Virus record (IMG/VR): IMGVR_UViG_2541047827_000012 | Source of the DNA: a virus | Taxonomy: Duplodnaviria > Heunggongvirae > Uroviricota > Caudoviricetes | Direction: 5' to 3' (one strand) | Length of the DNA: 39,749 nt | Part shown: positions 532 through 34,748 of the stretch, in pieces | Position numbering within the stretch: position 1 is the stretch's first letter | How the letters are laid out: every line of letters begins with the position of its first letter | Program-made: the position numbers and the translations under genes | The notes under the pieces: model-generated | What the model was told of the DNA's origin: nothing | Seen by the model: only the letters and a program-made list of their open reading frames with translations | The model's database searches: none

Positions 532-1071
532 ATGAAGAAAGTTTTTCTTTGCGCCATCTTAGCCTCCTTAAGCTATCCGGCTATCGCCTCATCATTGCAG
601 GATCAACTCTCTGCTGTCGCAGAAGCGGAACAGCAAGGTAAAAATGAAGAGCAAAGGCAGCATGACGAATGGATCGCGGAGCGCAACAGGGAAATCCAGC
701 AAGAGAAGCAACGTCGCGCAAACGCCCAGGCCGCCGCTAACAAAAGAGCGGCAACGGCAGCGGCAAATAAGAAAGCTCGTCAGGATAAACTGGATGCCGA
801 AGCCACTGCGGACAAAAAACGCGATCAAAGTTATGAAGATGAGCTACGCAGCTTAGAGATTCAGAAACAAAAACTGGCGCTGGCGAAAGAAGAAGCCCGC
901 GTTAAGCGCGAAAACGAATTTATCGATCAGGAACTGAAGCACAAAGCTGCGCAAACCGATGTGGTGCAATCTGAAGCTGACGCAAACAGGAATATGACTG
1001 AGGGCGGTCGCGATCTGATGAAAAGCGTGGGCAAAGCAGAAGAGAACAAATCGGACAGCTGGTTTAACTAA
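532..1071 (+). CDS. Secreted Lys/Glu/Ala/Gln-rich coiled-coil protein, function unknown, probably host
   Basis: Strong SD (caggaggag) before ATG 532; N-terminal Sec signal MKKVFLCAILASLSYPAIAS; low-complexity charged helical body. Confidence 0.5.
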   Translation: MKKVFLCAILASLSYPAIASSLQDQLSAVAEAEQQGKNEEQRQHDEWIAERNREIQQEKQRRANAQAAANKRAATAAANKKARQDKLDAEATADKKRDQSYEDELRSLEIQKQKLALAKEEARVKRENEFIDQELKHKAAQTDVVQSEADANRNMTEGGRDLMKSVGKAEENKSDSWFN

Positions 1072-1999: not shown

Positions 2000-2482
2000 C
2001 TATCTGGTCAGGGTGTCGTACTGTTTTTCACAGACTCTTCCGGCTTCGGCTGCCCGGTCAGCATACTCTGCCAGTTGTCTGTTTCTCTCGAGAGATTTAC
2101 TGAGCACGTCGGCAAGCAAAACTCCGGTGTCTGCGGCTGACGTCCCAGCGCCGACAATGGCGTTATACTGCCTGAGCTGCTCACGGATGGCAACGAGCTG
2201 TTGCTGCAACCGGCCAGCGCGAGCGGCAGCATCAAGAGCATCATTGCGCGCCTGGTCGATCCTCTGCTGCGCTTCACGTTCATTGATCGCTTTCTCCTGT
2301 TCGTAGTGCTGACGAATTCTCTCATCTTCGGTTTTGCGGTCTTCTTTCGCCTGCGCATACCCGGCGTCGTACTGACGACTGCCGTGTACACTCCAGGCAA
2401 CAACTCCTGATATGACCAGAACAGCAAGCACCGCCATGATAATCAACTGTTTCCGGTATGCTTTTACGAATGCCCAGATCAT
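2000..2482 (-). CDS. Rz-like i-spanin (lysis)
   Basis: N-terminal TM segment then Ala/Gln/Arg-rich coiled coil; directly downstream of the endolysin and overlapping its stop; contains an embedded lipoprotein ORF in another frame. Confidence 0.6.
2008..2283 (-). CDS. Rz1-like o-spanin lipoprotein embedded in Rz (+1 frame)
   Basis: Frame inside Rz encodes [26 protein letters not shown] (signal plus lipobox LAGC) followed by a Pro/Ser-rich short tail; start could instead be the ATG at 2244. Confidence 0.5.
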   Translation of the reverse strand: MNVKRSRGSTRRAMMLLMLPLALAGCSNSSLPSVSSSGSITPLSALGRQPQTPEFCLPTCSVNLSRETDNWQSMLTGQPKPEESVKNSTTP

Positions 2483-4296: not shown

Positions 4297-6482
4297 GAAA
4301 CTTCCCCATTGGTTGAAAATATGGCTCCTCCAACGCCAAGTGTATTTCGTGTTGTGCTCAACCTCAGAGGGCTGGAGTCAGAATTAGAATATCCTGTAGC
4401 AGAAATAAAAGATCCTCCACTAATAGTCAACTGCGGAACATCGGCTATATCTGAATAAGTTCTGTCAGCAACAGTATTATTTATAGCCACATATGATCCA
4501 AAAAAACTTCTTATTGTTTGGTTTTTAACTTTACTTCCTTCAATGGTTATCCTACTACCACAGTCGGCAATAAATCCTGAATCTGCATCCAGCGTTGCAT
4601 TCATAAAAGAAGCTTCAGATCTCTCTACATCAATCCATCTAATATCTTTTGTGGGATTTGCACCAAATACATGACAAATATTAGAGTTAAACCTTACACC
4701 ATCTTGGAGGTGCATTAATTTTTTTATATCTGTACCCCATAGCCTTGGAAAATTAACAGATGCTCCTGCATGGCAATCAAATCCCAGCTCAGCCCCTGAG
4801 ATATCTACAGCCTTTCCTGAAATAACAGCACCAGTGTCTGCATTAACGGCTGTTCCACAATTGCGCATATCATTACCAGCAACATCAACGCAACCCGCAC
4901 CATCAATACGCACACCAAGTGCACATCCATAAAAACCTTTTTCAATATTTGGTTCAAGGACTTTACCACTTGTTTCTGCATCACTTTCTTCAACGTCATG
5001 TCGTCTTGCATCAACATATGCTGTATGAATGCAGGTTAATCCACGATATGAGCAATGTATAGTTTTATGGTCGCGTATATTAACATTTGAACCATCTCTT
5101 ACATTCCATCCTATATAACAATAGCTTGCACTTGACCCCTGAAAATCTGCTTTAACATTATAAATACAATTAACTGACGCAACCGTACTCTCTGTGCACC
5201 GTTCAAACTTGCTTACAGGCATTGATGCCTTGACATTATTTACCAGTTGCAGGGAAGAGTATCTGCTATAAGAAAAATCACATACGTAATACCCTTCTGG
5301 CATATATGCAGCAACACTTTCCTCATCAGGAGCACATCCGGTATGATATGCACTAATTTTTGCACCAAAACTACCATGAATTCCAACGTAGAACTTTCGA
5401 GCACCTGAATACGGATAGAAATTAAGTTCAGCTTTTTGAGTTACAATAAATGCACAAACATCGCTATCATCTCTATTTTCTTCGATCTGAATAGCAAATA
5501 CAGGACTTTTTGCTGCATCGCAAATGTAAAATAAATACTTGTATTCGTAATACGTTCTAACGATTTTAGTAAACAAACGAGTGTCAGAGAAAACCACTGA
5601 GTCTTCTGATGTTATTTTAATCCAAGACAAATCAACACCTGAACTGAATTCAATTTGATAGTTGATAATATGCCCGGTCTTAATTCTTATTTCGCAGAAA
5701 GCATTACCACCATCCCACATAGGTCTCATTGACTGGGCTGCAATGATTGCATCTTTGAGTGTAGGGTAATCACCCCATTCGCCAACAGTAATAACAAAAG
5801 TATAATATGAGTTAAAAACAGCGGCATTTTTGCCTTTGGATATCAACTCCTTAATCATAAAAATATTATCTTCGTAATCACAAGGAGAAATTATATCCCT
5901 CATTTTGCTTTGAAATGTTCGTTGTCTTGCCCCGCTTCCTGACGGTATAAACCAACCAAAACCACCAACAACCCCGGCGATTGCAGCATCGACATAATTA
6001 CGCATTGAGCGATTATTTACAGCGTCCTGCTCAAATGATGGATCTGCAAGGTTAGAAATTTTGTTTTGCTTTGCATCGTAATATTTTGCAAGCAAAGATG
6101 GTTTCATCAATGCACGTCTGAACCACCCAAAACATCGCTGGATCAGCATCGTCAGGTAGTCAAATGCATCTTCATGAACTTCGGGGAAAAATTTTCCCTG
6201 ATTGCGAAGATCAGTCTCCTGCACCACATCAAGCACACGCTCTATCGTAATTCGCCAGCCAGCAGCAAGCGGCGACGGGAGAACCACTTCACCGCCACTA
6301 TAAGTGCCCGCTCCAGTTACCTTATAACCGGTATCCAGAACCAATTCTGTTACGTTCCCGTTCAGGTCAGACACCTGAACAACCAGGTCGGTTTTTTTGA
6401 AAATACGGAAGGTATACGGAAATGATGTCGTAACGCCGTTACCGGTGTATTCGTTGTGGTCAACTTCGGTTGAGACCGTCAT
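4293..6482 (-). CDS. Tailspike/tail fiber: conserved T7 gp17-like N-terminal domain plus divergent C-terminal receptor-binding domain
   Basis: 729 aa; N-terminus MTVSTEVDHNEYTGNGVTTSFPYTFRIFK...DTGYKVTG follows the tail-fiber N-terminal adaptor pattern; C-terminal 500 aa is AT-rich with Gly/Ser/Asn/Cys-rich repeats typical of beta-helix receptor-binding domains. Confidence 0.8.
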   Translation of the reverse strand: MTVSTEVDHNEYTGNGVTTSFPYTFRIFKKTDLVVQVSDLNGNVTELVLDTGYKVTGAGTYSGGEVVLPSPLAAGWRITIERVLDVVQETDLRNQGKFFPEVHEDAFDYLTMLIQRCFGWFRRALMKPSLLAKYYDAKQNKISNLADPSFEQDAVNNRSMRNYVDAAIAGVVGGFGWFIPSGSGARQRTFQSKMRDIISPCDYEDNIFMIKELISKGKNAAVFNSYYTFVITVGEWGDYPTLKDAIIAAQSMRPMWDGGNAFCEIRIKTGHIINYQIEFSSGVDLSWIKITSEDSVVFSDTRLFTKIVRTYYEYKYLFYICDAAKSPVFAIQIEENRDDSDVCAFIVTQKAELNFYPYSGARKFYVGIHGSFGAKISAYHTGCAPDEESVAAYMPEGYYVCDFSYSRYSSLQLVNNVKASMPVSKFERCTESTVASVNCIYNVKADFQGSSASYCYIGWNVRDGSNVNIRDHKTIHCSYRGLTCIHTAYVDARRHDVEESDAETSGKVLEPNIEKGFYGCALGVRIDGAGCVDVAGNDMRNCGTAVNADTGAVISGKAVDISGAELGFDCHAGASVNFPRLWGTDIKKLMHLQDGVRFNSNICHVFGANPTKDIRWIDVERSEASFMNATLDADSGFIADCGSRITIEGSKVKNQTIRSFFGSYVAINNTVADRTYSDIADVPQLTISGGSFISATGYSNSDSSPLRLSTTRNTLGVGGAIFSTNGEVS

Positions 6483-6586: not shown

Positions 6587-6601
6587 TTACCTTTCAGGTA
6601 A
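6587..6601. promoter_or_regulatory. Operator-like palindrome TTACCTTTCAGGTAA
   Basis: Perfect TTACC-N5-GGTAA inverted repeat about 40 bp upstream of the LexA box and antirepressor-paralog gene. Confidence 0.6.
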
Positions 6602-6638: not shown

Positions 6639-6658
6639 TACTGTATAAATATACAGTT
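6639..6658. promoter_or_regulatory. LexA (SOS) box
   Basis: TACTGTATAAATATACAGTT matches the CTGT-N8-ACAG LexA consensus; 20 bp upstream of ATG 6678 and overlaps a TATAAA -10-like element. Confidence 0.7.
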
Positions 6659-6677
6659 ATTGCATGGAGAAGATAAG

Positions 6678-6935
6678 ATGCAGCAGTATCACTATCCACT
6701 GGAAGACGGATTTACCGAAAGGATTCACACGCCGGGAGGCGTCAGGTCACTGGTGGAGGGATCGCACTTGATGAAATTACTCCGGGATCTCGATAAGGAT
6801 GGATTTAATGTCGATGGCCCACTTGCCGAACTGACTGCACTGATTAACTACGTCACCAGCTCACAGATGTCTATGCGGGATCTGCAAACACATCTCGACT
6901 ATTGTGCCGAACAATTACGAAAACAAACCAGATAA
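6678..6935 (+). CDS. Antirepressor C-terminal-domain paralog (lacks Bro-N domain), 85 aa
   Basis: SD GGAG before ATG 6678; sequence ...GVRSLVEGSHLMKLLRDLDKDGFNVDGPLAELTALINYV...RDLQTHLDY aligns at roughly 40-45 percent identity to the last 85 residues of the Bro-N protein at 7249..7935. Confidence 0.6.
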   Translation: MQQYHYPLEDGFTERIHTPGGVRSLVEGSHLMKLLRDLDKDGFNVDGPLAELTALINYVTSSQMSMRDLQTHLDYCAEQLRKQTR

Positions 6936-6966
6936 GGTTTGCAATTGCCAAGTGGAGTGCTTATAT

Positions 6967-6981
6967 TTACCTTTGCGGTAA
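6967..6981. promoter_or_regulatory. Operator-like palindrome TTACCTTTGCGGTAA
   Basis: Perfect TTACC-N5-GGTAA in the 312-bp non-coding stretch between the paralog and the antirepressor gene. Confidence 0.55.
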
Positions 6982-7248
6982 ATTTACATCGCACTCCTCT
7001 TGTGCCATAGTAATCGGGCACTGGCAAAATCCAGTGCCGGGATTGGCGTCCCGAGTTACTACAGAGGCACATATGCCGCATAAGCGGTTTTTTTTATGTG
7101 TAAAGCGCACCTATTCTATGGTGGGCTGTGTGGGGGCACCGAAAGGTGCGCCGGGTCCTTTGTAGCCGGTTACGCCAACCCTGCACAGTTCACCACCAAC
7201 CGATTGGCGTCGGTAGTGGTGATTAACCTAACTACAAAGGTGATCACT

Positions 7249-7935
7249 ATGACTGCTAACGTAACCCCATCTGTTTTTCATTTTGAATCAGAAGCAACCA
7301 TTCGAGCCATTGTTATTGATGGAAATCCTTGGTTTGTTGCCAAAGACGTTATTAAAGCTCTTCAACTGACAAACCCCACTATGTCAATAAAATCTCTTGA
7401 TGATGATGAAAGGGCTAAATTTAACTTAGGCCGTCAAGGCGAAACCAATATTATCAACGAGTCAGGCCTCTACACACTGATCCTCCGCTGCCGCGATGCA
7501 GTAACACCAGGCACTATCCCCTACCGCTTTCGCAAATGGGTTACAGGTGAGGTTCTTCCTCAGATCCGCCGCACCGGAAGTTACATTAAAAACTCGCTCC
7601 CGCAGGAAGAACGCATAAAGATGGTTGCCGACCAGGTTGCAAACGCCACAGCATCAGCAGTGATGCAGGCAATGAAGATAGAGAACAAAACCTACAGCGC
7701 CCCACTGAAGCCCGGCTACCGCAGCCTGATTCATTCGCCGTCTGGTGTTCTCGGCCTGACGGAGAACTCACTGCTGATGAATTTGCTGAACCAGTTACAG
7801 GAAGACGGGCATGACGTATCGGGCGCGGCGGCGGAGCTGACTACCATGTTCTGCTACATCGTCGGTGTGAGCAAATGCCTGCGTGATATCCAGACGCACG
7901 CGGAGTACATCAACGACAAGGCAGGGTTCTTCTGA
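7249..7935 (+). CDS. Antirepressor (Bro-N domain plus KilA-C-like C-terminal domain)
   Basis: SD AAAGGTGA before ATG 7249; Bro-N pattern FHFESEATIRAIVIDGNPWFVAKDVIKALQL...ESGLYTLILRCRDAVTPGTIPYRFRKWVTGEVLPQIRRTGSYI. Confidence 0.8.
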   Translation: MTANVTPSVFHFESEATIRAIVIDGNPWFVAKDVIKALQLTNPTMSIKSLDDDERAKFNLGRQGETNIINESGLYTLILRCRDAVTPGTIPYRFRKWVTGEVLPQIRRTGSYIKNSLPQEERIKMVADQVANATASAVMQAMKIENKTYSAPLKPGYRSLIHSPSGVLGLTENSLLMNLLNQLQEDGHDVSGAAAELTTMFCYIVGVSKCLRDIQTHAEYINDKAGFF

Positions 7936-8008
7936 CAGAACGGCGGCACAGGGATGTGCCTTTAAATAATTCTGTACAGATTGCAGACCGGGGGTGAATA
8001 GCGTACTA

Positions 8009-8023
8009 TTACCTTAAAGGTAA
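8009..8023. promoter_or_regulatory. Operator-like palindrome TTACCTTAAAGGTAA overlapping a putative promoter
   Basis: Perfect TTACC-N5-GGTAA; putative -35 TTGCAG (7981-7986) and -10 TACTAT (8004-8009) with 17-bp spacing put the site over the -10 and start of the 8050 operon. Confidence 0.55.
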
Positions 8024-8049
8024 ACCATGTGTTTACATGAGGAGGAGAT

Positions 8050-8259
8050 ATGGGATTTTGGTTCGCTCGTACAAAAACGAGGGATAATGCACCCAGCCCT
8101 CAGGCAAAAAATGCAGAAGTTCCGGCGTCAGCGCAGGTTAACAAGCGTGGTGGTGTGTATATCTCATCACAGCAAATTTCTGAGCTTCCTGAGGTTAAGG
8201 AGATGCGTCGTCTCGCTGCTGCAATCGTTAAACAGGATCTTGCCACTGTAAGGAAATAG
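8050..8259 (+). CDS. Hypothetical 69-aa protein, first gene of accessory operon
   Basis: Strong SD GAGGAGGAG 6 nt before ATG 8050; stop overlaps start of the next gene. Confidence 0.5.
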   Translation: MGFWFARTKTRDNAPSPQAKNAEVPASAQVNKRGGVYISSQQISELPEVKEMRRLAAAIVKQDLATVRK

Positions 8260-9125
8260 TGTTGTTAGCTCTTCTAATTATCCCCATTCTGGTTAGTGGT
8301 TATATTATGATAACCGCTAACCAGTATCATTATTTCCGTTTATACCGACATGAAGGCCAGCTTCTTTATATGAAAGTAGCTGCATTAGGTACATATTGCC
8401 TTGTTGCTTCGGTAATAATTGCCGCATTTATAAAATATAAATATCCTGATTTTCACCTAGTTCACGATATGGTGGAAACTTTTAATGTAACGTCAAAACC
8501 AGAAACAGATAGAATTTACATGTGGCTGCTTCTTCTCTCAGCCACATCCATTTGCTTCTCTTTGTGTTATGTGTCTGTTGTGTGGGTGAAAGATTTTCTT
8601 CTTGGTTGTTTTTATAAACGTGATATTTATGAGCAAAAAACAGAGGCAATGAAGGCCAGAGTACTGCGAAAAACTTACTCGCAAGGTTCTTTAGACTTAC
8701 TATTGCTTGATGCTATTGAATCGGATCCTAAACGACCAATGCTGATTACTTTATCATCAAACAAAGTGTATGTTGGAATAATAAATGGTTCTGGTGAACC
8801 AACGGAAAATCAGGGTCCGCATCAGCACATATCTTTTGTTCCTTTAATGTCAGGATACAGGAACAAAGACAACTTATCTGTCACATTCACTAATGCTTAT
8901 CCAGGAGAAATACAGGTCAAGCGGACTGCAGCAATAAGAGGAATTAGCAGAAAGAAAGTGCCAGGACTTGAGATCATGGTGTCTATTGACGAAATAAGTT
9001 ATATATCATGGTTTGATTTTGAAGTATATAAAGCAACAAATAACAAAGTAGAATCCAGGGGGCACGTTATTCGTGTTACCAAAAATGGAAGAAATATATA
9101 TCAAAGAAATAGCAAAAAAGAATAG
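8259..9125 (+). CDS. Membrane-anchored protein of unknown function (N-terminal TM helices plus 160-aa soluble domain)
   Basis: GTG start at 8259 overlapping upstream stop (SD AGGA 8251-8254); about 3 hydrophobic helices in the first 110 aa; markedly AT-rich versus flanking phage DNA; followed by a terminator. Confidence 0.6.
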   Translation: MLLALLIIPILVSGYIMITANQYHYFRLYRHEGQLLYMKVAALGTYCLVASVIIAAFIKYKYPDFHLVHDMVETFNVTSKPETDRIYMWLLLLSATSICFSLCYVSVVWVKDFLLGCFYKRDIYEQKTEAMKARVLRKTYSQGSLDLLLLDAIESDPKRPMLITLSSNKVYVGIINGSGEPTENQGPHQHISFVPLMSGYRNKDNLSVTFTNAYPGEIQVKRTAAIRGISRKKVPGLEIMVSIDEISYISWFDFEVYKATNNKVESRGHVIRVTKNGRNIYQRNSKKE

Positions 9126-9145
9126 CCCGCGCTGCGGGCTTTTTT
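9125..9145 (+). terminator. Rho-independent terminator after the membrane-protein operon
   Basis: GCCCGC-gct-GCGGGC hairpin followed by TTTTTT. Confidence 0.6.
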
Positions 9146-9217
9146 GTGGACGAAACAAAAGCCAGTGCTACACTCATTGACGCCACATTGAGGTGGCTTA
9201 TAGATGGAAATTTCACA

Positions 9218-9379
9218 ATGAAAAAAGCATTTGCTGCACTGTTCGTTTTGTTGTCTCTGGTAGCTTCAACTCAGGCCTTTGCCGGTCGTTGTCAGCACGA
9301 CAGCGATACTGCCGCTGACGGCTCCCGCTGCGGTGGGCGTTCTGCGGATTCCCGCCCGGGTGGCGGTGGCATTCGTTAA
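9218..9379 (+). CDS. Small secreted peptide (signal peptide plus about 31-aa Cys-containing mature part), hypothetical
   Basis: MKKAFAALFVLLSLVASTQAFA then GRCQHDSDTAADGSRCGG...; weak RBS; the track ORF from 9146 starts inside the upstream terminator so the internal ATG was chosen. Confidence 0.35.
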   Translation: MKKAFAALFVLLSLVASTQAFAGRCQHDSDTAADGSRCGGRSADSRPGGGGIR

Positions 9380-25971: not shown

Positions 25972-25986
25972 TTACCTTTCAGGTAA
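25972..25986. promoter_or_regulatory. Operator-like palindrome TTACCTTTCAGGTAA at head-operon promoter
   Basis: Identical 15-mer to the site at 6587; lies upstream (minus direction) of the 25881/portal operon next to a TTGACA hexamer. Confidence 0.55.
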
Positions 25987-28488: not shown

Positions 28489-29081
28489 TGATTACCATCC
28501 TGACGTTCTTTGAGTCGCTTCCTGGCTGCTGCTATGCGATCAGCAATTGTCACATTCACATTAACATCCAGACGTTCTTTGAACGCGTTGACATCAACAT
28601 GCTTACCAATCAGCTCAAGGTTCTTCACCTTGTCAGGCCATTTAATTTTTTTGAGGATTGTCTCTATCGAATCCTCGTTCATGTTCATGATGGTCGATGA
28701 CAGATCAAAGCCACTAAGCGTAGTGCGCCAGATTTTCGGCCACTCACGGATTGGTTTAAGGCTCCCATCGTCGTTGAGGATGTCGATCACGTCCATCTGG
28801 TCGATCTCCACCAGGCGCATGAGAACGTAATCAGCACTGACGCGCATTCGTTTGTTGCGCTCCTCCATCAACTCGGCAATCCGTTTTTGAATGCGTTCAT
28901 CGCGCATCATGACACTGGCTTTAACTGCCGCTGTATTTGGGGAGAATCCTGCGTTAATCGCTGCCTGAGTCTGGTTTTCAGGCGTTTTGATGTATGACTG
29001 GCAATAAGCCTCCTGCATTGCTGTTAGTGGCTTAAATTGCGTTGATTTGCGTTTATAGGTTTTAGGTTCAGCAGGCATCAT
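28485..29081 (-). CDS. Terminase small subunit
   Basis: Start set at internal ATG 29081 because the track N-terminal extension runs through upstream direct repeats; typical TerS size and position. Confidence 0.65.
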   Translation of the reverse strand: MMPAEPKTYKRKSTQFKPLTAMQEAYCQSYIKTPENQTQAAINAGFSPNTAAVKASVMMRDERIQKRIAELMEERNKRMRVSADYVLMRLVEIDQMDVIDILNDDGSLKPIREWPKIWRTTLSGFDLSSTIMNMNEDSIETILKKIKWPDKVKNLELIGKHVDVNAFKERLDVNVNVTIADRIAAARKRLKERQDGNQ

Positions 29082-29088
29082 AACCACC

Positions 29089-29120
29089 GTGGTAATAGTT
29101 ACCGTTGTGGTAATAGTACC
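29089..29120. repeat. Direct repeat GTGGTAATAGT(T)ACC x2 upstream of TerS
   Basis: Two copies at 29089-29103 and 29107-29120; each contains GGTAA-N3-(T)TACC, the operator half-sites in inverted order. Confidence 0.6.
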
Positions 29121-31590: not shown

Positions 31591-31605
31591 TTACCTCTGA
31601 GGTAA
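31591..31605. promoter_or_regulatory. Operator-like palindrome TTACCTCTGAGGTAA
   Basis: Perfect TTACC-N5-GGTAA, 4 bp upstream of the nuclease start codon and overlapping its RBS. Confidence 0.55.
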
Positions 31606-31652
31606 TTAAAAACCACATAAGACACTAAATCAATAGAATTTAGAATATTTTG

Positions 31653-31667
31653 TTACCCAATAGGTAA
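31653..31667. promoter_or_regulatory. Operator-like palindrome TTACCCAATAGGTAA
   Basis: Perfect TTACC-N5-GGTAA in the 117-bp gap between the P-like and nuclease genes. Confidence 0.55.
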
Positions 31668-33574: not shown

Positions 33575-33589
33575 TTACCTTTGAGGTAC
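33575..33589. promoter_or_regulatory. Operator-like site TTACCTTTGAGGTAC (one mismatch)
   Basis: TTACC-N5-GGTAc between the Cro-like terminator and the next early gene. Confidence 0.4.
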
Positions 33590-33593
33590 GAAT

Positions 33594-33622
33594 AGATATG
33601 AAAAGACCGCCGGGTGGCGGTC
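33594..33622 (-). terminator. Rho-independent terminator after the Cro-like gene (tR1-like position)
   Basis: GACCGCC-ggg? hairpin (GACCGCC/GGCGGTC at 33605-33622) followed on the minus strand by TTTTCAT. Confidence 0.5.
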
Positions 33623-33644
33623 TACAGAGGGTTGTAGCTGGATA

Positions 33645-33875
33645 TCATGAGTAGAAGAAGTATGCCAGTTCTGCTTTTGAGCGCAGCCATTGTCTTGTTT
33701 TACAGGCTTTAAAAAGCCCATTCATCAATACTTTACCTGGCATTTTGCGCTTACCTGTTAAGTGAGTCTGGATATAGTGACTCGTCGTTCCGGCTTCCTG
33801 TGCGAAGGCTTCACGCTCATCCGGAGTAAGTGCAAGCCAGTGCTTTTTGAAATCGAAATGTCCGTTATCGCTCAT
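33645..33875 (-). CDS. Cro-like HTH regulator (YdaS/Cro family)
   Basis: 76 aa; ...EREAFAQEAGTTSHYIQTHLTGKRKMPGK... parallels the lambda Cro HTH; divergent from the repressor gene across a three-operator region. Confidence 0.6.
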   Translation of the reverse strand: MSDNGHFDFKKHWLALTPDEREAFAQEAGTTSHYIQTHLTGKRKMPGKVLMNGLFKACKTRQWLRSKAELAYFFYS

Positions 33876-33911
33876 AGCTATTGCCTGATATTTATTTCAG
33901 ATAATAAATAT

Positions 33912-33974
33912 TCACCCATAAGGTAACAAAAATCAAGGATAGTTACCTATGAGGTGCATTTACCTGTTGGGTAA
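33912..33974. promoter_or_regulatory. Three clustered operator sites between the Cro-like and repressor genes (OR-like)
   Basis: 33912-33926 tCACC-N5-GGTAA, 33943-33957 TTACC-N5-GGTgc, 33960-33974 TTACC-N5-GGTAA; centre spacings 31 and 17 bp. Confidence 0.6.
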
Positions 33975-34029: not shown

Positions 34030-34614
34030 ATGAAAAGTATCCAGGACGTCCGCAGGCAAAATCTCAACGACTTGATCGACCGTGAATTCAATGGTGTTCA
34101 GACGCGGATGGCAGAAAAACTTGGAACTCAGGCAAATCTGGTAAACCGCTGGGCTCTTGGCAAGAAGGTTATCGGCGACCAGGTTGCACGAAAAATTGAA
34201 GCTGCCGCCAATAAACCCCGTAACTGGCTTGATATTGATCGCTCGCTTTCTCAGGAGGGTTTTCAGCCTGTCGGCCCGAGCGATATAGGTCAGCTGGCGG
34301 CTCACAACCTGGAACGCTGGATGAGCGAAAGCCGCGACCTTTCAACGCAGGGAAAACTACACCGCGCATCCGGCGTCGCCCAGGTGACAATCAGCCGCCT
34401 GTTAAACAATGAGGTCAGCGTTTCCATTTCCACCCTGGAGAATGTTGCATCCGCATTCGGGCGTCACGGCTATGAATTACTGATTCACCCGCACGACCCT
34501 GCGACCATCAACTATGATCGCTCGCGCTACGCATTGTTACCCGAAACCGAGAAAGCAAAGATCGAAAGTTACATTGAATTTGTCATCAACCAGAACGAAA
34601 AAAACAAACAATAA
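34030..34614 (+). CDS. Prophage repressor, double-HTH, no S24 peptidase domain (CI-like position)
   Basis: 194 aa with two HTH-like segments; no Ala-Gly cleavage site or Ser/Lys peptidase motifs seen; flanked by operator clusters; followed by a terminator. Confidence 0.65.
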   Translation: MKSIQDVRRQNLNDLIDREFNGVQTRMAEKLGTQANLVNRWALGKKVIGDQVARKIEAAANKPRNWLDIDRSLSQEGFQPVGPSDIGQLAAHNLERWMSESRDLSTQGKLHRASGVAQVTISRLLNNEVSVSISTLENVASAFGRHGYELLIHPHDPATINYDRSRYALLPETEKAKIESYIEFVINQNEKNKQ

Positions 34615-34671: not shown

Positions 34672-34686
34672 TTACCTAATGGGTAA
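34672..34686. promoter_or_regulatory. Operator-like palindrome TTACCTAATGGGTAA (OL-like, distal)
   Basis: Perfect TTACC-N5-GGTAA upstream of the TTGACA hexamer at 34706-34711. Confidence 0.55.
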
Positions 34687-34733
34687 TTTTTTTAACTCAT
34701 ATCTATTGACATCAAACCAGATACGCATAATTA

Positions 34734-34748
34734 TTACCTCAACGGTAA
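34734..34748. promoter_or_regulatory. Operator-like palindrome TTACCTCAACGGTAA overlapping the early rightward promoter (OL-like, proximal)
   Basis: Perfect TTACC-N5-GGTAA just downstream of TTGACA-N17 and followed by a GGTAAC half-site within the RBS of the first early ORF. Confidence 0.55.

Follow-up and report, generated by a model that had tools for sequence, protein, structure and literature searches.

A stand-alone antirepressor gene behind a predicted LexA box, and a second antirepressor gene with a different control region, in an epsilon15/phiV10-like coliphage

Background

The described system closest to the locus reported here is the Ant/Rep pair of Salmonella phage SPC32H (Kim and Ryu 2013; Kim et al. 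2016; PDB 5D50 and 5D4Z). According to PMC7380047, which cites Kim and Ryu 2013, self-cleavage of LexA leads to the production of SPC32H Ant, which inhibits the repressor through protein-protein contact. PMC9638917 describes SPC32H Rep as binding DNA as a tetramer, and a complex of an Ant tetramer with two Rep dimers in which the Rep tetramer is broken; PMC9986798 places the contact of Ant on the C-terminal tetramerisation domain of Rep. Tum of coliphage 186 and GfoA and GfhA of the Gifsy prophages are, like Ant, small LexA-repressed antirepressors that bind and thereby inactivate a non-cleavable repressor, although we detected no sequence relationship between them and Ant.

The immI region of phages P1 and P7 is laid out as the c4 antisense RNA, icd and ant, and follows an a1b1-c4-a2b2 logic. 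In the isrK-orf45-anrP region of Gifsy-1, the leaky isrK terminator lies ahead of STnc1160, a C4-like RNA that arises by processing, and of the gene of a predicted antirepressor; transcripts that pass the terminator are not translated until IsrK acts, and the prophage is induced by AnrP (PMC4825925).

Here we describe a stretch of viral DNA of 39,749 nucleotides (IMG/VR record IMGVR_UViG_2541047827_000012), hereafter the window. Sequence matches of the region assign it to an epsilon15/phiV10-like podophage of the genus Uetakevirus, with E. coli as the host, whereas the host of SPC32H is Salmonella. We are confident that the window represents a temperate Uetakevirus in which positions 6678-6935 are ant, and in which a Bro-N gene further downstream is a second antirepressor gene that appears to be wired differently.

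Results and Discussion

A stand-alone antirepressor gene divergent from the tailspike gene

The small gene at positions 6678-6935 (+ strand, ATG start) encodes a stand-alone antirepressor of 85 aa and is the orthologue of SPC32H ant. In a phmmer search, residues 2-84 of its product matched chain E of PDB 5D50 ("Anti-repressor protein") with an E-value of 1.4e-46, and a tblastn comparison with SPC32H Ant, which is of the same length, gave 86.7% (about 87%) identity. The gene occupies a slot divergent from the tailspike gene, which is common to the ant genes of the window, SPC32H, epsilon15 and phiV10. The identities of the window Ant are 83-87% with epsilon15 gp19 and with the product of the SPC32H gene annotated as ant, and they rise to 98-100% with proteins of phiV10, TL-2011b, ZX5, HEMP4 and phiv142-3 that are labelled "hypothetical". 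It was also matched by phrog_450 at 7e-48, for which the PHROG label is "unknown function". When a phage collection was searched with Ant by tblastn, the matches were confined to Uetakevirus-like entries and a handful from Klebsiella phages.

We also compared the coding sequence with that of the SPC32H orthologue and found 35.5 synonymous and 16.5 non-synonymous differences, which correspond to a dS of ~1.4 and a dN/dS of 0.07; the synonymous sites are near saturation against the Salmonella orthologues. Given this dN/dS value, 6678-6935 is a translated gene under strong constraint. Stand-alone homologues of 85-86 aa form more than 100 protein clusters, which occur in Escherichia, Salmonella, Citrobacter, Klebsiella and other Enterobacteriaceae. 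The original prediction, which was made from the sequence of the window, had called the small gene an N-terminally truncated paralog of the Bro-N antirepressor. However, the stand-alone and syntenic form of 85-86 aa is standard across the relatives, including epsilon15, SPC32H and phiV10, and Ant is therefore not an N-terminal truncation; to judge from these homologues, standing alone is the normal, ancestral state in this lineage. The prediction was nearer the mark in regarding the gene as a functional stand-alone copy rather than a decayed one, as is borne out by the low dN/dS, the conserved LexA box described below and the identity of about 87% to SPC32H Ant. The reading that the gene is what is left of an antirepressor gene duplication, decaying and no longer translated, would suit the "hypothetical" and "unknown function" labels that PGAP and PHROGs give, but it is almost certainly wrong, for it has to be set against the strong purifying pattern with near-saturated synonymous sites, a constant length of 85-86 aa throughout more than 100 clusters, the conserved Shine-Dalgarno sequence and LexA box, and an orthologue that has been crystallised.

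Pfam assigned no curated domain to Ant and gave only a sub-threshold match to DUF724, and it contains no model for an Ant-like domain. The Bro-N domain (PF02498) was detected in the 228-aa product of the downstream gene only, so that the small product lacks a Bro-N domain, as had been predicted; without such a match, the 85-aa protein is not a member of the Bro-N family. Neither the two antirepressor proteins nor the three downstream ORFs had a match in PADLOC.

The control region of ant and the cognate repressor

A predicted LexA (SOS) box, TACTGTATAAATATACAGTT, lies at 6639-6658, 20 nt ahead of ant. It has two mismatches to the 20-nt LexA consensus and is the sole match in the window at up to three mismatches, where shuffled sequences lead one to expect 0. 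The box is conserved in SPC32H, epsilon15, phiV10, TL-2011b and HEMP4, and is degenerate in the Klebsiella relatives (ATATGTATATATATACAGTA). The Shine-Dalgarno sequence of ant, GGAG at 6666-6669 (+ strand), stands 8 nt before the ATG and is invariant in comparison with SPC32H and phiV10. Thus, the proposal that the gene has its own ribosome-binding site and sits directly behind a LexA box agrees with what we found. Farther upstream, between the tailspike gene and ant, a palindrome resembling an operator of the phage repressor (TTACCTTTCAGGTAA, 6587-6601) is kept in SPC32H and phiV10 as well, and the mean column identity of the upstream region in an alignment of the window, SPC32H and phiV10 is 87%. 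A consensus scan of the region upstream of ant showed no strong sigma-70 site. As a side observation, TGGATA-17-TACTGT and a TTGCAA beside the operator are weak candidates for the ant promoter.

The window also carries a cognate repressor gene, rep, at 34030-34614 (+ strand), the product of which is the presumed target of both antirepressors. This two-domain protein matches chain A of PDB 5D50 ("Repressor") at 4e-42 and is 100% identical to phiV10 Rep (p40), but it shares no more than 42% identity with SPC32H Rep. We counted 13 copies of the palindrome TTACC-N5-GGTAA in the window, where 0.65 would be expected; they cluster on either side of rep (33912, 33960, 34672 and 34734), and three more are located at 6587-6601, 6967-6981 and 8009-8023. 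In SPC32H there are 18 such palindromes, of which three separate rep from the early gene that diverges from it and one separates ant from the tailspike gene, and the GenBank record of epsilon15 annotates the palindromes as repressor binding sites.

The original prediction had left open whether the small protein itself binds the repressor, as the antirepressor proper, or modulates the full-length Bro-N protein. Its identity of about 87% to the Ant of SPC32H, present as chain E in the Rep-Ant complex 5D50, suggests that the former is most likely. Because the window Rep is only 42% identical to SPC32H Rep, we infer the binding of Ant to Rep and the resulting induction in the window phage from the SPC32H system. 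A comparison of eight genomes showed no covariation of Ant with Rep: an Ant identity of 83-87% goes with a Rep identity of 42%, and one of 60-64% with a Rep identity of 45%. The observation that gave rise to this analysis is therefore real and largely explained, in that ant is the SOS-triggered antirepressor gene known from epsilon15/phiV10-like prophages; it adds little new biology, since its Salmonella-phage orthologue has already been characterised structurally.

An Ant-like domain at the C-terminus of the Bro-N protein

The second antirepressor gene, at 7249-7935 (+ strand), encodes a protein of 228 aa that consists of a Bro-N domain (residues 18-104; PF02498, E-value 5e-20), a linker and an Ant-like domain at about residues 145-226. 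It had been predicted that the small product aligns with the C-terminus of this protein, and a pairwise alignment confirms it: in BLASTP, Ant residues 2-79 aligned with residues 147-224 of the Bro-N protein without gaps, with 32 of 78 positions identical (41%) and an E-value of 2e-16. The C-terminus of the Bro-N protein also matched chain E of 5D50 (1e-13) and phrog_450 (4e-36), so that both proteins are homologous to the antirepressor of solved structure. Structure prediction was less informative. The AlphaFold2 model of the Bro-N protein, based on a 31-sequence alignment, is confident in the Bro-N domain only; residues 115-175 have pLDDT values below 50 and the C-terminal 10-residue blocks average ~50-70. 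Thus, the model upholds the Bro-N domain but gives no structural confirmation of the C-terminal domain, which is poorly predicted.

The family of Ant-like domains, which we collected by word-indexed and exhaustive profile searches, is small, with 62 clusters at 50% identity among 1.84 billion representatives. Its members either stand alone or are placed at the C-terminus behind Bro-N, AntA, Phage_pRha or ORF6N heads. The two copies in the window belong to different clades, and 18 positions are invariant across both; in Kp4865-1, too, Ant is ~39-43% identical to the C-terminal domain of its own Bro-N protein. The C-terminal-domain sequence of the window was found at a nucleotide identity of at least 95% in nearly all of 469 E. 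coli genomes, in genes annotated as Bro-N, AntA/AntB or P22-type Ant. The membership of the Bro-N C-terminal domain in a clade of its own that is shuffled among several N-terminal heads likewise speaks against Ant as a truncated paralog of the Bro-N protein. A third Ant-like copy is present in TL-2011b and HEMP4; in TL-2011b this copy is part of a P22_AR_N fusion whose gene directly follows an Rfam sar RNA.

Experimental results are available for a close relative of the Bro-N protein, the ORF4 anti-repressor of E. coli phage vB_EcoP_ZX5 (ZX5). ORF4 is 82% identical to the window protein and differs from it in the first ~70 residues of the Bro-N domain, whereas residues 70-228, including the whole Ant-like domain, are identical. 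According to the ZX5 report (PMC9782041), overexpression of GST-tagged ORF4 reduced the lysogens from ~1e9 to 1e6, or about 1000-fold, and ZX5 Rep is of the same sequence as phiV10 Rep. The passages considered draw no link between the C-terminus of ORF4 and SPC32H Ant and mention no small upstream ant, and the full text of the paper (PMC9782041) never mentions LexA and, of the two genes, examines the Bro-N gene only.

These findings bear on two further readings of the pair. One of them, which takes up the dominant-negative role raised in the original prediction, has the small protein join the Bro-N C-terminal domain in mixed oligomers and, as a dominant-negative or buffering partner, modulate the Bro-N protein instead of acting on Rep itself. 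The homology of the two domains, with their 18 invariant positions, would allow such contacts, and mixed oligomers are conceivable for a protein whose SPC32H counterpart is reportedly a tetramer (PMC9638917). However, SPC32H, epsilon15 and BUCT711 all carry ant without a Bro-N partner, and Ant therefore has a function of its own. Furthermore, SPC32H Ant was crystallised bound to Rep (5D50), the two domains share only ~41% identity and fall into separate, separately conserved clades, and overexpression of ZX5 ORF4 favoured lysis. We thus regard a dominant-negative role as very unlikely.

The other reading is that the two proteins have different targets, Ant acting on the phage's own Rep and the Bro-N fusion on the Reps of other resident prophages, which would result in cross-induction or anti-immunity. 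Both clades are of long standing and have been maintained (41% identity in the window and ~39-43% in Kp4865-1), the C-terminal-domain clade swaps among Bro-N, AntA, Rha, ORF6N and P22_AR_N heads with nucleotide identities above 95% in E. coli, and antirepressors that act in trans are on record for the Gifsy and Fels-2 prophages (PMC3121763; reviewed in PMC7380047). On the other hand, ZX5 ORF4, with its identical C-terminal domain, reduced the lysogeny of ZX5 itself, which reportedly has the same Rep (PMC9782041), and Ant itself tracks Rep poorly (87% against 42%, and 60-64% against 45%). We consider separate targets unlikely, and the reading that both antirepressors act on the phage's own Rep is used below.

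The interval between the two genes carries isrK and C4 elements

The Bro-N gene had been placed 300 bp downstream of ant. The distance is essentially correct, the interval 6936-7248 being 313 bp long, but this is no empty spacer: it is dense with regulatory elements, including a palindrome, promoter-like sites, an isrK-like RNA and a C4 RNA. The palindrome TTACCTTTGCGGTAA at 6967-6981, which resembles a Rep operator, lies in the isrK promoter region; its arms are conserved and its centre is variable among phiV10, TL-2011b, HEMP4, Kp4865-1 and the window. It is accompanied by two promoter-like sites identified by a consensus scan. The first, TTTACA-17-(TG)CATAGT at 6983-7011 (+ strand), is a putative promoter with an extended -10 element conserved in five phages, and it predicts a transcript start at ~7018, which is exactly the 5' end of isrK. 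The second, TTGCAA-17-TATATT, is upstream of the palindrome.

The isrK-like RNA at 7018-7094 (+ strand) was identified with Rfam RF01394 at 74.2 bits, against a gathering score of 50, and ends in an intrinsic terminator at 7075-7094 (+ strand) that consists of a stem at 7075-7088 followed by a T run. The C4 antisense RNA at 7114-7200 (+ strand; RF01695) scored 79.5 bits against a gathering score of 45. In its predicted fold, CCUUUGUAG at 7157-7165 forms the loop of the b' hairpin and ACGCCAA at 7172-7178 (a') is unpaired. The C4 targets lie at 7204-7240 on the same strand, with a2 (UUGGCGU) at 7204-7210 and b2 (CUACAAAGG) at 7232-7240. The nine nucleotides of b' are exactly complementary to b2, which is in the Shine-Dalgarno region of the Bro-N gene (ATG at 7249), and the seven nucleotides of a' are exactly complementary both to UUGGCGU at 7204-7210 and to the isrK hairpin loop at 7043-7049. 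The isrK sequences complementary to C4, a1 at 7043-7049 and b1 at 7059-7067 (+ strand), constitute candidate decoy sites. We set aside RNAduplex energies of full-length C4 with the leader or with isrK, since duplexes of whole molecules are not meaningful for loop-loop contacts.

Both sets of segments (a1/a'/a2 and b1/b'/b2) show three-way compensatory changes across five phages. The b1/b'/b2 sequences are CUACAGAGG / CCUUUGUAG / CUACAAAGG in the window, CUAAAAGG / CCUUUUAG / CUAAAAGG in phiV10 and TL-2011b, and CUAAGUGG / CCACUUAG / CUAAGUGG in HEMP4; in Kp4865-1 it is a1/a'/a2 that have changed together, to AUUGAGAC / GUCUCAA / AUUGAGAC.

This arrangement is like that of P1/P7 immI in several respects: an RNA of the C4 family lies in the leader of an antirepressor gene, it has two single-stranded segments complementary to a1/b1 and a2/b2, the downstream sites cover the ribosome-binding site, and the specificity alleles covary between phages. 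Unlike P1 immI, the window has no identified icd homologue, its antirepressor is a Bro-N and Ant-like fusion and not P1 Ant1/2, and the operator is that of Rep and not of C1. Gifsy-1 shares both Rfam families, isrK and C4, in the same order; however, the promoter in the window is flanked by a Rep operator, and there is no antQ gene next to the locus. A further difference concerns the ORF overlapping C4. In the window, a frame that starts at ATG 7096 crosses C4 and is in frame with the Bro-N gene (7096-7935), unlike the separate 45-codon ORF of Gifsy-1. A separate 45-codon ORF is found at the position of this frame in Kp4865-1, and in phiV10, TL-2011b and HEMP4 there is no ATG-started ORF of at least 40 codons at the position equivalent to 7096.

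The pair of isrK and C4 also precedes the Bro-N gene in TL-2011b and Kp4865-1, in both of which ant and the isrK-C4-Bro-N unit are more than 1 kb apart, with other DNA in between. SPC32H, which resembles the window in its Ant, the slot of ant beside the tailspike gene, the LexA box, the upstream palindrome and the two-domain Rep, differs in the sequence of Rep and lacks the whole isrK-C4-Bro-N module. The original prediction had called ant the first LexA-controlled gene, which implies that the Bro-N gene is simply the next one of a LexA operon. Given that a promoter-like site, a Rep operator, a terminator and C4 precede it, the Bro-N gene looks like a separate, Rep-repressible and RNA-gated unit and not like the second gene of such an operon.

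If the two genes did form one LexA-controlled operon, SOS transcripts would have to read into the Bro-N gene. From the ant stop (6935) up to the isrK terminator, a scan showed no other terminator on the + strand, so that transcripts of ant must enter isrK, and in Gifsy-1 part of the isrK transcripts do pass the isrK terminator (PMC4825925). However, a strong intrinsic terminator (the stem at 7075-7088 with its T run) stands between the genes, a conserved promoter-like site and a Rep operator are located between ant and isrK, and the spacing of more than 1 kb in TL-2011b and Kp4865-1 means that the linkage of ant and the Bro-N gene is not conserved. A single operon is therefore improbable in our view, and we favor separate control of the two genes; the Bro-N gene is a known kind of modular, RNA-controlled antirepressor gene.

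A proposed induction circuit

Based on these comparisons, we propose the following circuit for the window phage. In a lysogen, host LexA bound at 6639-6658 would keep ant off, and the Bro-N gene would presumably be silent, held by Rep and C4. Upon DNA damage, LexA would be cleaved and the 85-aa Ant made; an Ant tetramer would then take two Rep dimers and split the DNA-binding Rep tetramer, which would free the lytic promoters without cleavage of Rep. With Rep lost to Ant, the isrK promoter would open and the Bro-N antirepressor could reinforce induction, and decoy sites of the IsrK type may relieve the control by C4. In an infection of a cell without a matching Rep or C4, the Bro-N gene would be expressed and could provide anti-immunity, so that the RNA-gated unit would serve on infection as an immunity/anti-immunity determinant like those of P1 and P22. 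The occurrence of several C4 specificity alleles among very similar phages fits such a role.

We also considered a broader speculation, namely that one Rep-binding (Ant-like) domain has been placed under up to three circuits: LexA and the SOS response for Ant, the Rep operator with isrK and C4 for the Bro-N protein, and a P22-type sar RNA unit for the P22_AR_N fusion of TL-2011b, with the first two coupled in the window because a1 and b1 in the ant 3' UTR could titrate C4. Transcripts of ant made in the SOS response have to continue into isrK and stop at its terminator, and their 3' UTR would therefore carry the a1/b1 decoys. If this speculation is true, the decoys in the ant 3' UTR would unlock the second antirepressor and act as a feed-forward lock on induction; we think, however, that the scheme as a whole is unlikely to be correct. 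In the literature searched, we found no description of SOS-gated and C4- or sar-gated versions of the Ant-like domain coexisting in one phage lineage. SOS-gated and RNA-gated antirepressors within one phage would provide a tractable system for asking why redundant induction switches are kept.

Occurrence of ant and of the Ant-like domain

The ant gene with its upstream region was found in 526 of 5426 complete E. coli genomes (about 10%), and among the matches listed all of the E. coli copies are labelled "hypothetical protein". The practical value of the identification is therefore one of annotation, in that a gene labelled "hypothetical" among the matches listed for about a tenth of the complete E. 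coli genomes can be named. The literature searched also contained no description that links the C-termini of Bro-N, AntA, Rha, ORF6N or P22_AR_N proteins to the fold of SPC32H Ant; the presence of an Ant fold at these C-termini points to the part of such proteins that probably contacts the repressor.

The C-terminal-domain clade also has "stand-alone" members of 95 aa. One of them, P0129, lies in a small Klebsiella islet beside AlpA and HicAB genes, has no phage context and probably represents a remnant. A frameshift within the Ant-like domain divides the Bro-N gene of phiV10 into p23 and p22.

Putative Rep operators and the region downstream of the Bro-N gene

The palindrome TTACC-N5-GGTAA occurs 13 times in the window, compared with 0.65 copies expected, and the copies lie at 6587-6601, 6967-6981, 8009-8023, 25972-25986, 29081-29113, 31591-31667, 33575-33974 and 34672-34748. 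A cluster of them surrounds the repressor gene rep (34030-34614), and further copies are located at several promoter-like sites. SPC32H carries 18 copies of the same palindrome, although its Rep and that of the window are only 42% identical. These copies are presumably Rep operators. If so, the copy upstream of the antirepressor gene ant (6678-6935) implies that Rep would also contact the control region of ant or of the tailspike gene.

A third promoter-like site flanked by a putative Rep operator (TTGCAG-17-TACTAT, with the operator at 8009-8023) precedes two ORFs, one at 8050-8259 (69 aa, phrog_5739) and one at 8259-9125 (288 aa with a hydrophobic N-terminus, phrog_3630), which are followed by a bidirectional terminator (9124-9140) and then by a 77-aa ORF. 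Pfam and PADLOC searches gave no match for any of these three ORFs. This cargo (7981-9379) is absent from phiV10 and SPC32H.

Possible RNA-level specificity upstream of the Bro-N gene

We compared the window region 7018-7240 with its equivalents in TL-2011b, phiV10, Kp4865-1 and HEMP4. The C4 recognition sequences fall into at least four specificity alleles among these otherwise near-identical phages, and the isrK decoy sites and ribosome-binding-site targets covary with them. This pattern suggests heteroimmunity at the RNA level, of the kind seen between P1 and P7.

Directly past the isrK terminator, an ATG at 7096 opens a frame that crosses the C4 RNA, extends up to 7248 and passes without a change of frame into the Bro-N gene, which would yield a product of 279 aa; many automatic gene calls choose this start. 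The corresponding frame of Kp4865-1 forms an ORF of its own, 45 codons long, which resembles Gifsy-1 orf45, a reading frame whose translation is coupled to that of anrP.

Other copies of the Ant-like domain

TL-2011b (L009, 31231-32244) and HEMP4 (L013, 1603-1872) each have a third Ant-like domain that shares 91-93% identity with the C-terminus of the window Bro-N protein. The TL-2011b copy is joined to a P22_AR_N domain, and a sar antisense RNA identified by Rfam lies upstream of it, so that the same effector domain appears to have been put under P22-type immI control. In phiV10 (L011, 19551-20230), p23 ('putative anti-immunity protein') and p22 together form a single Bro-N plus Ant-like gene with a frameshift within the Ant-like domain, which reflects either true inactivation or a sequencing error. 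The Bro-N C-terminal-domain clade also includes a stand-alone 95-aa protein (P0129) encoded at 6001-6288 in Klebsiella chromosomes L005-L008. Its gene belongs to a small islet, where it has an AlpA-like gene on one side and a HicAB toxin-antitoxin pair on the other. The surroundings contain no further phage genes, and the gene is probably a prophage remnant.

The Ant family, phrog_450, is labelled 'unknown function' in PHROGs, and PGAP calls ant a 'hypothetical protein' among the E. coli matches listed (526 genomes in all). These labels persist although the complex of an orthologue with Rep has been solved (5D50).

Elsewhere in the window, a full-length Rfam match (146 bits) to the Hfq-binding sRNA STnc490 was found on the minus strand at 1687-1810, flanked by ORFs at 532-1071 (plus strand) and 2000-2482 (minus strand).
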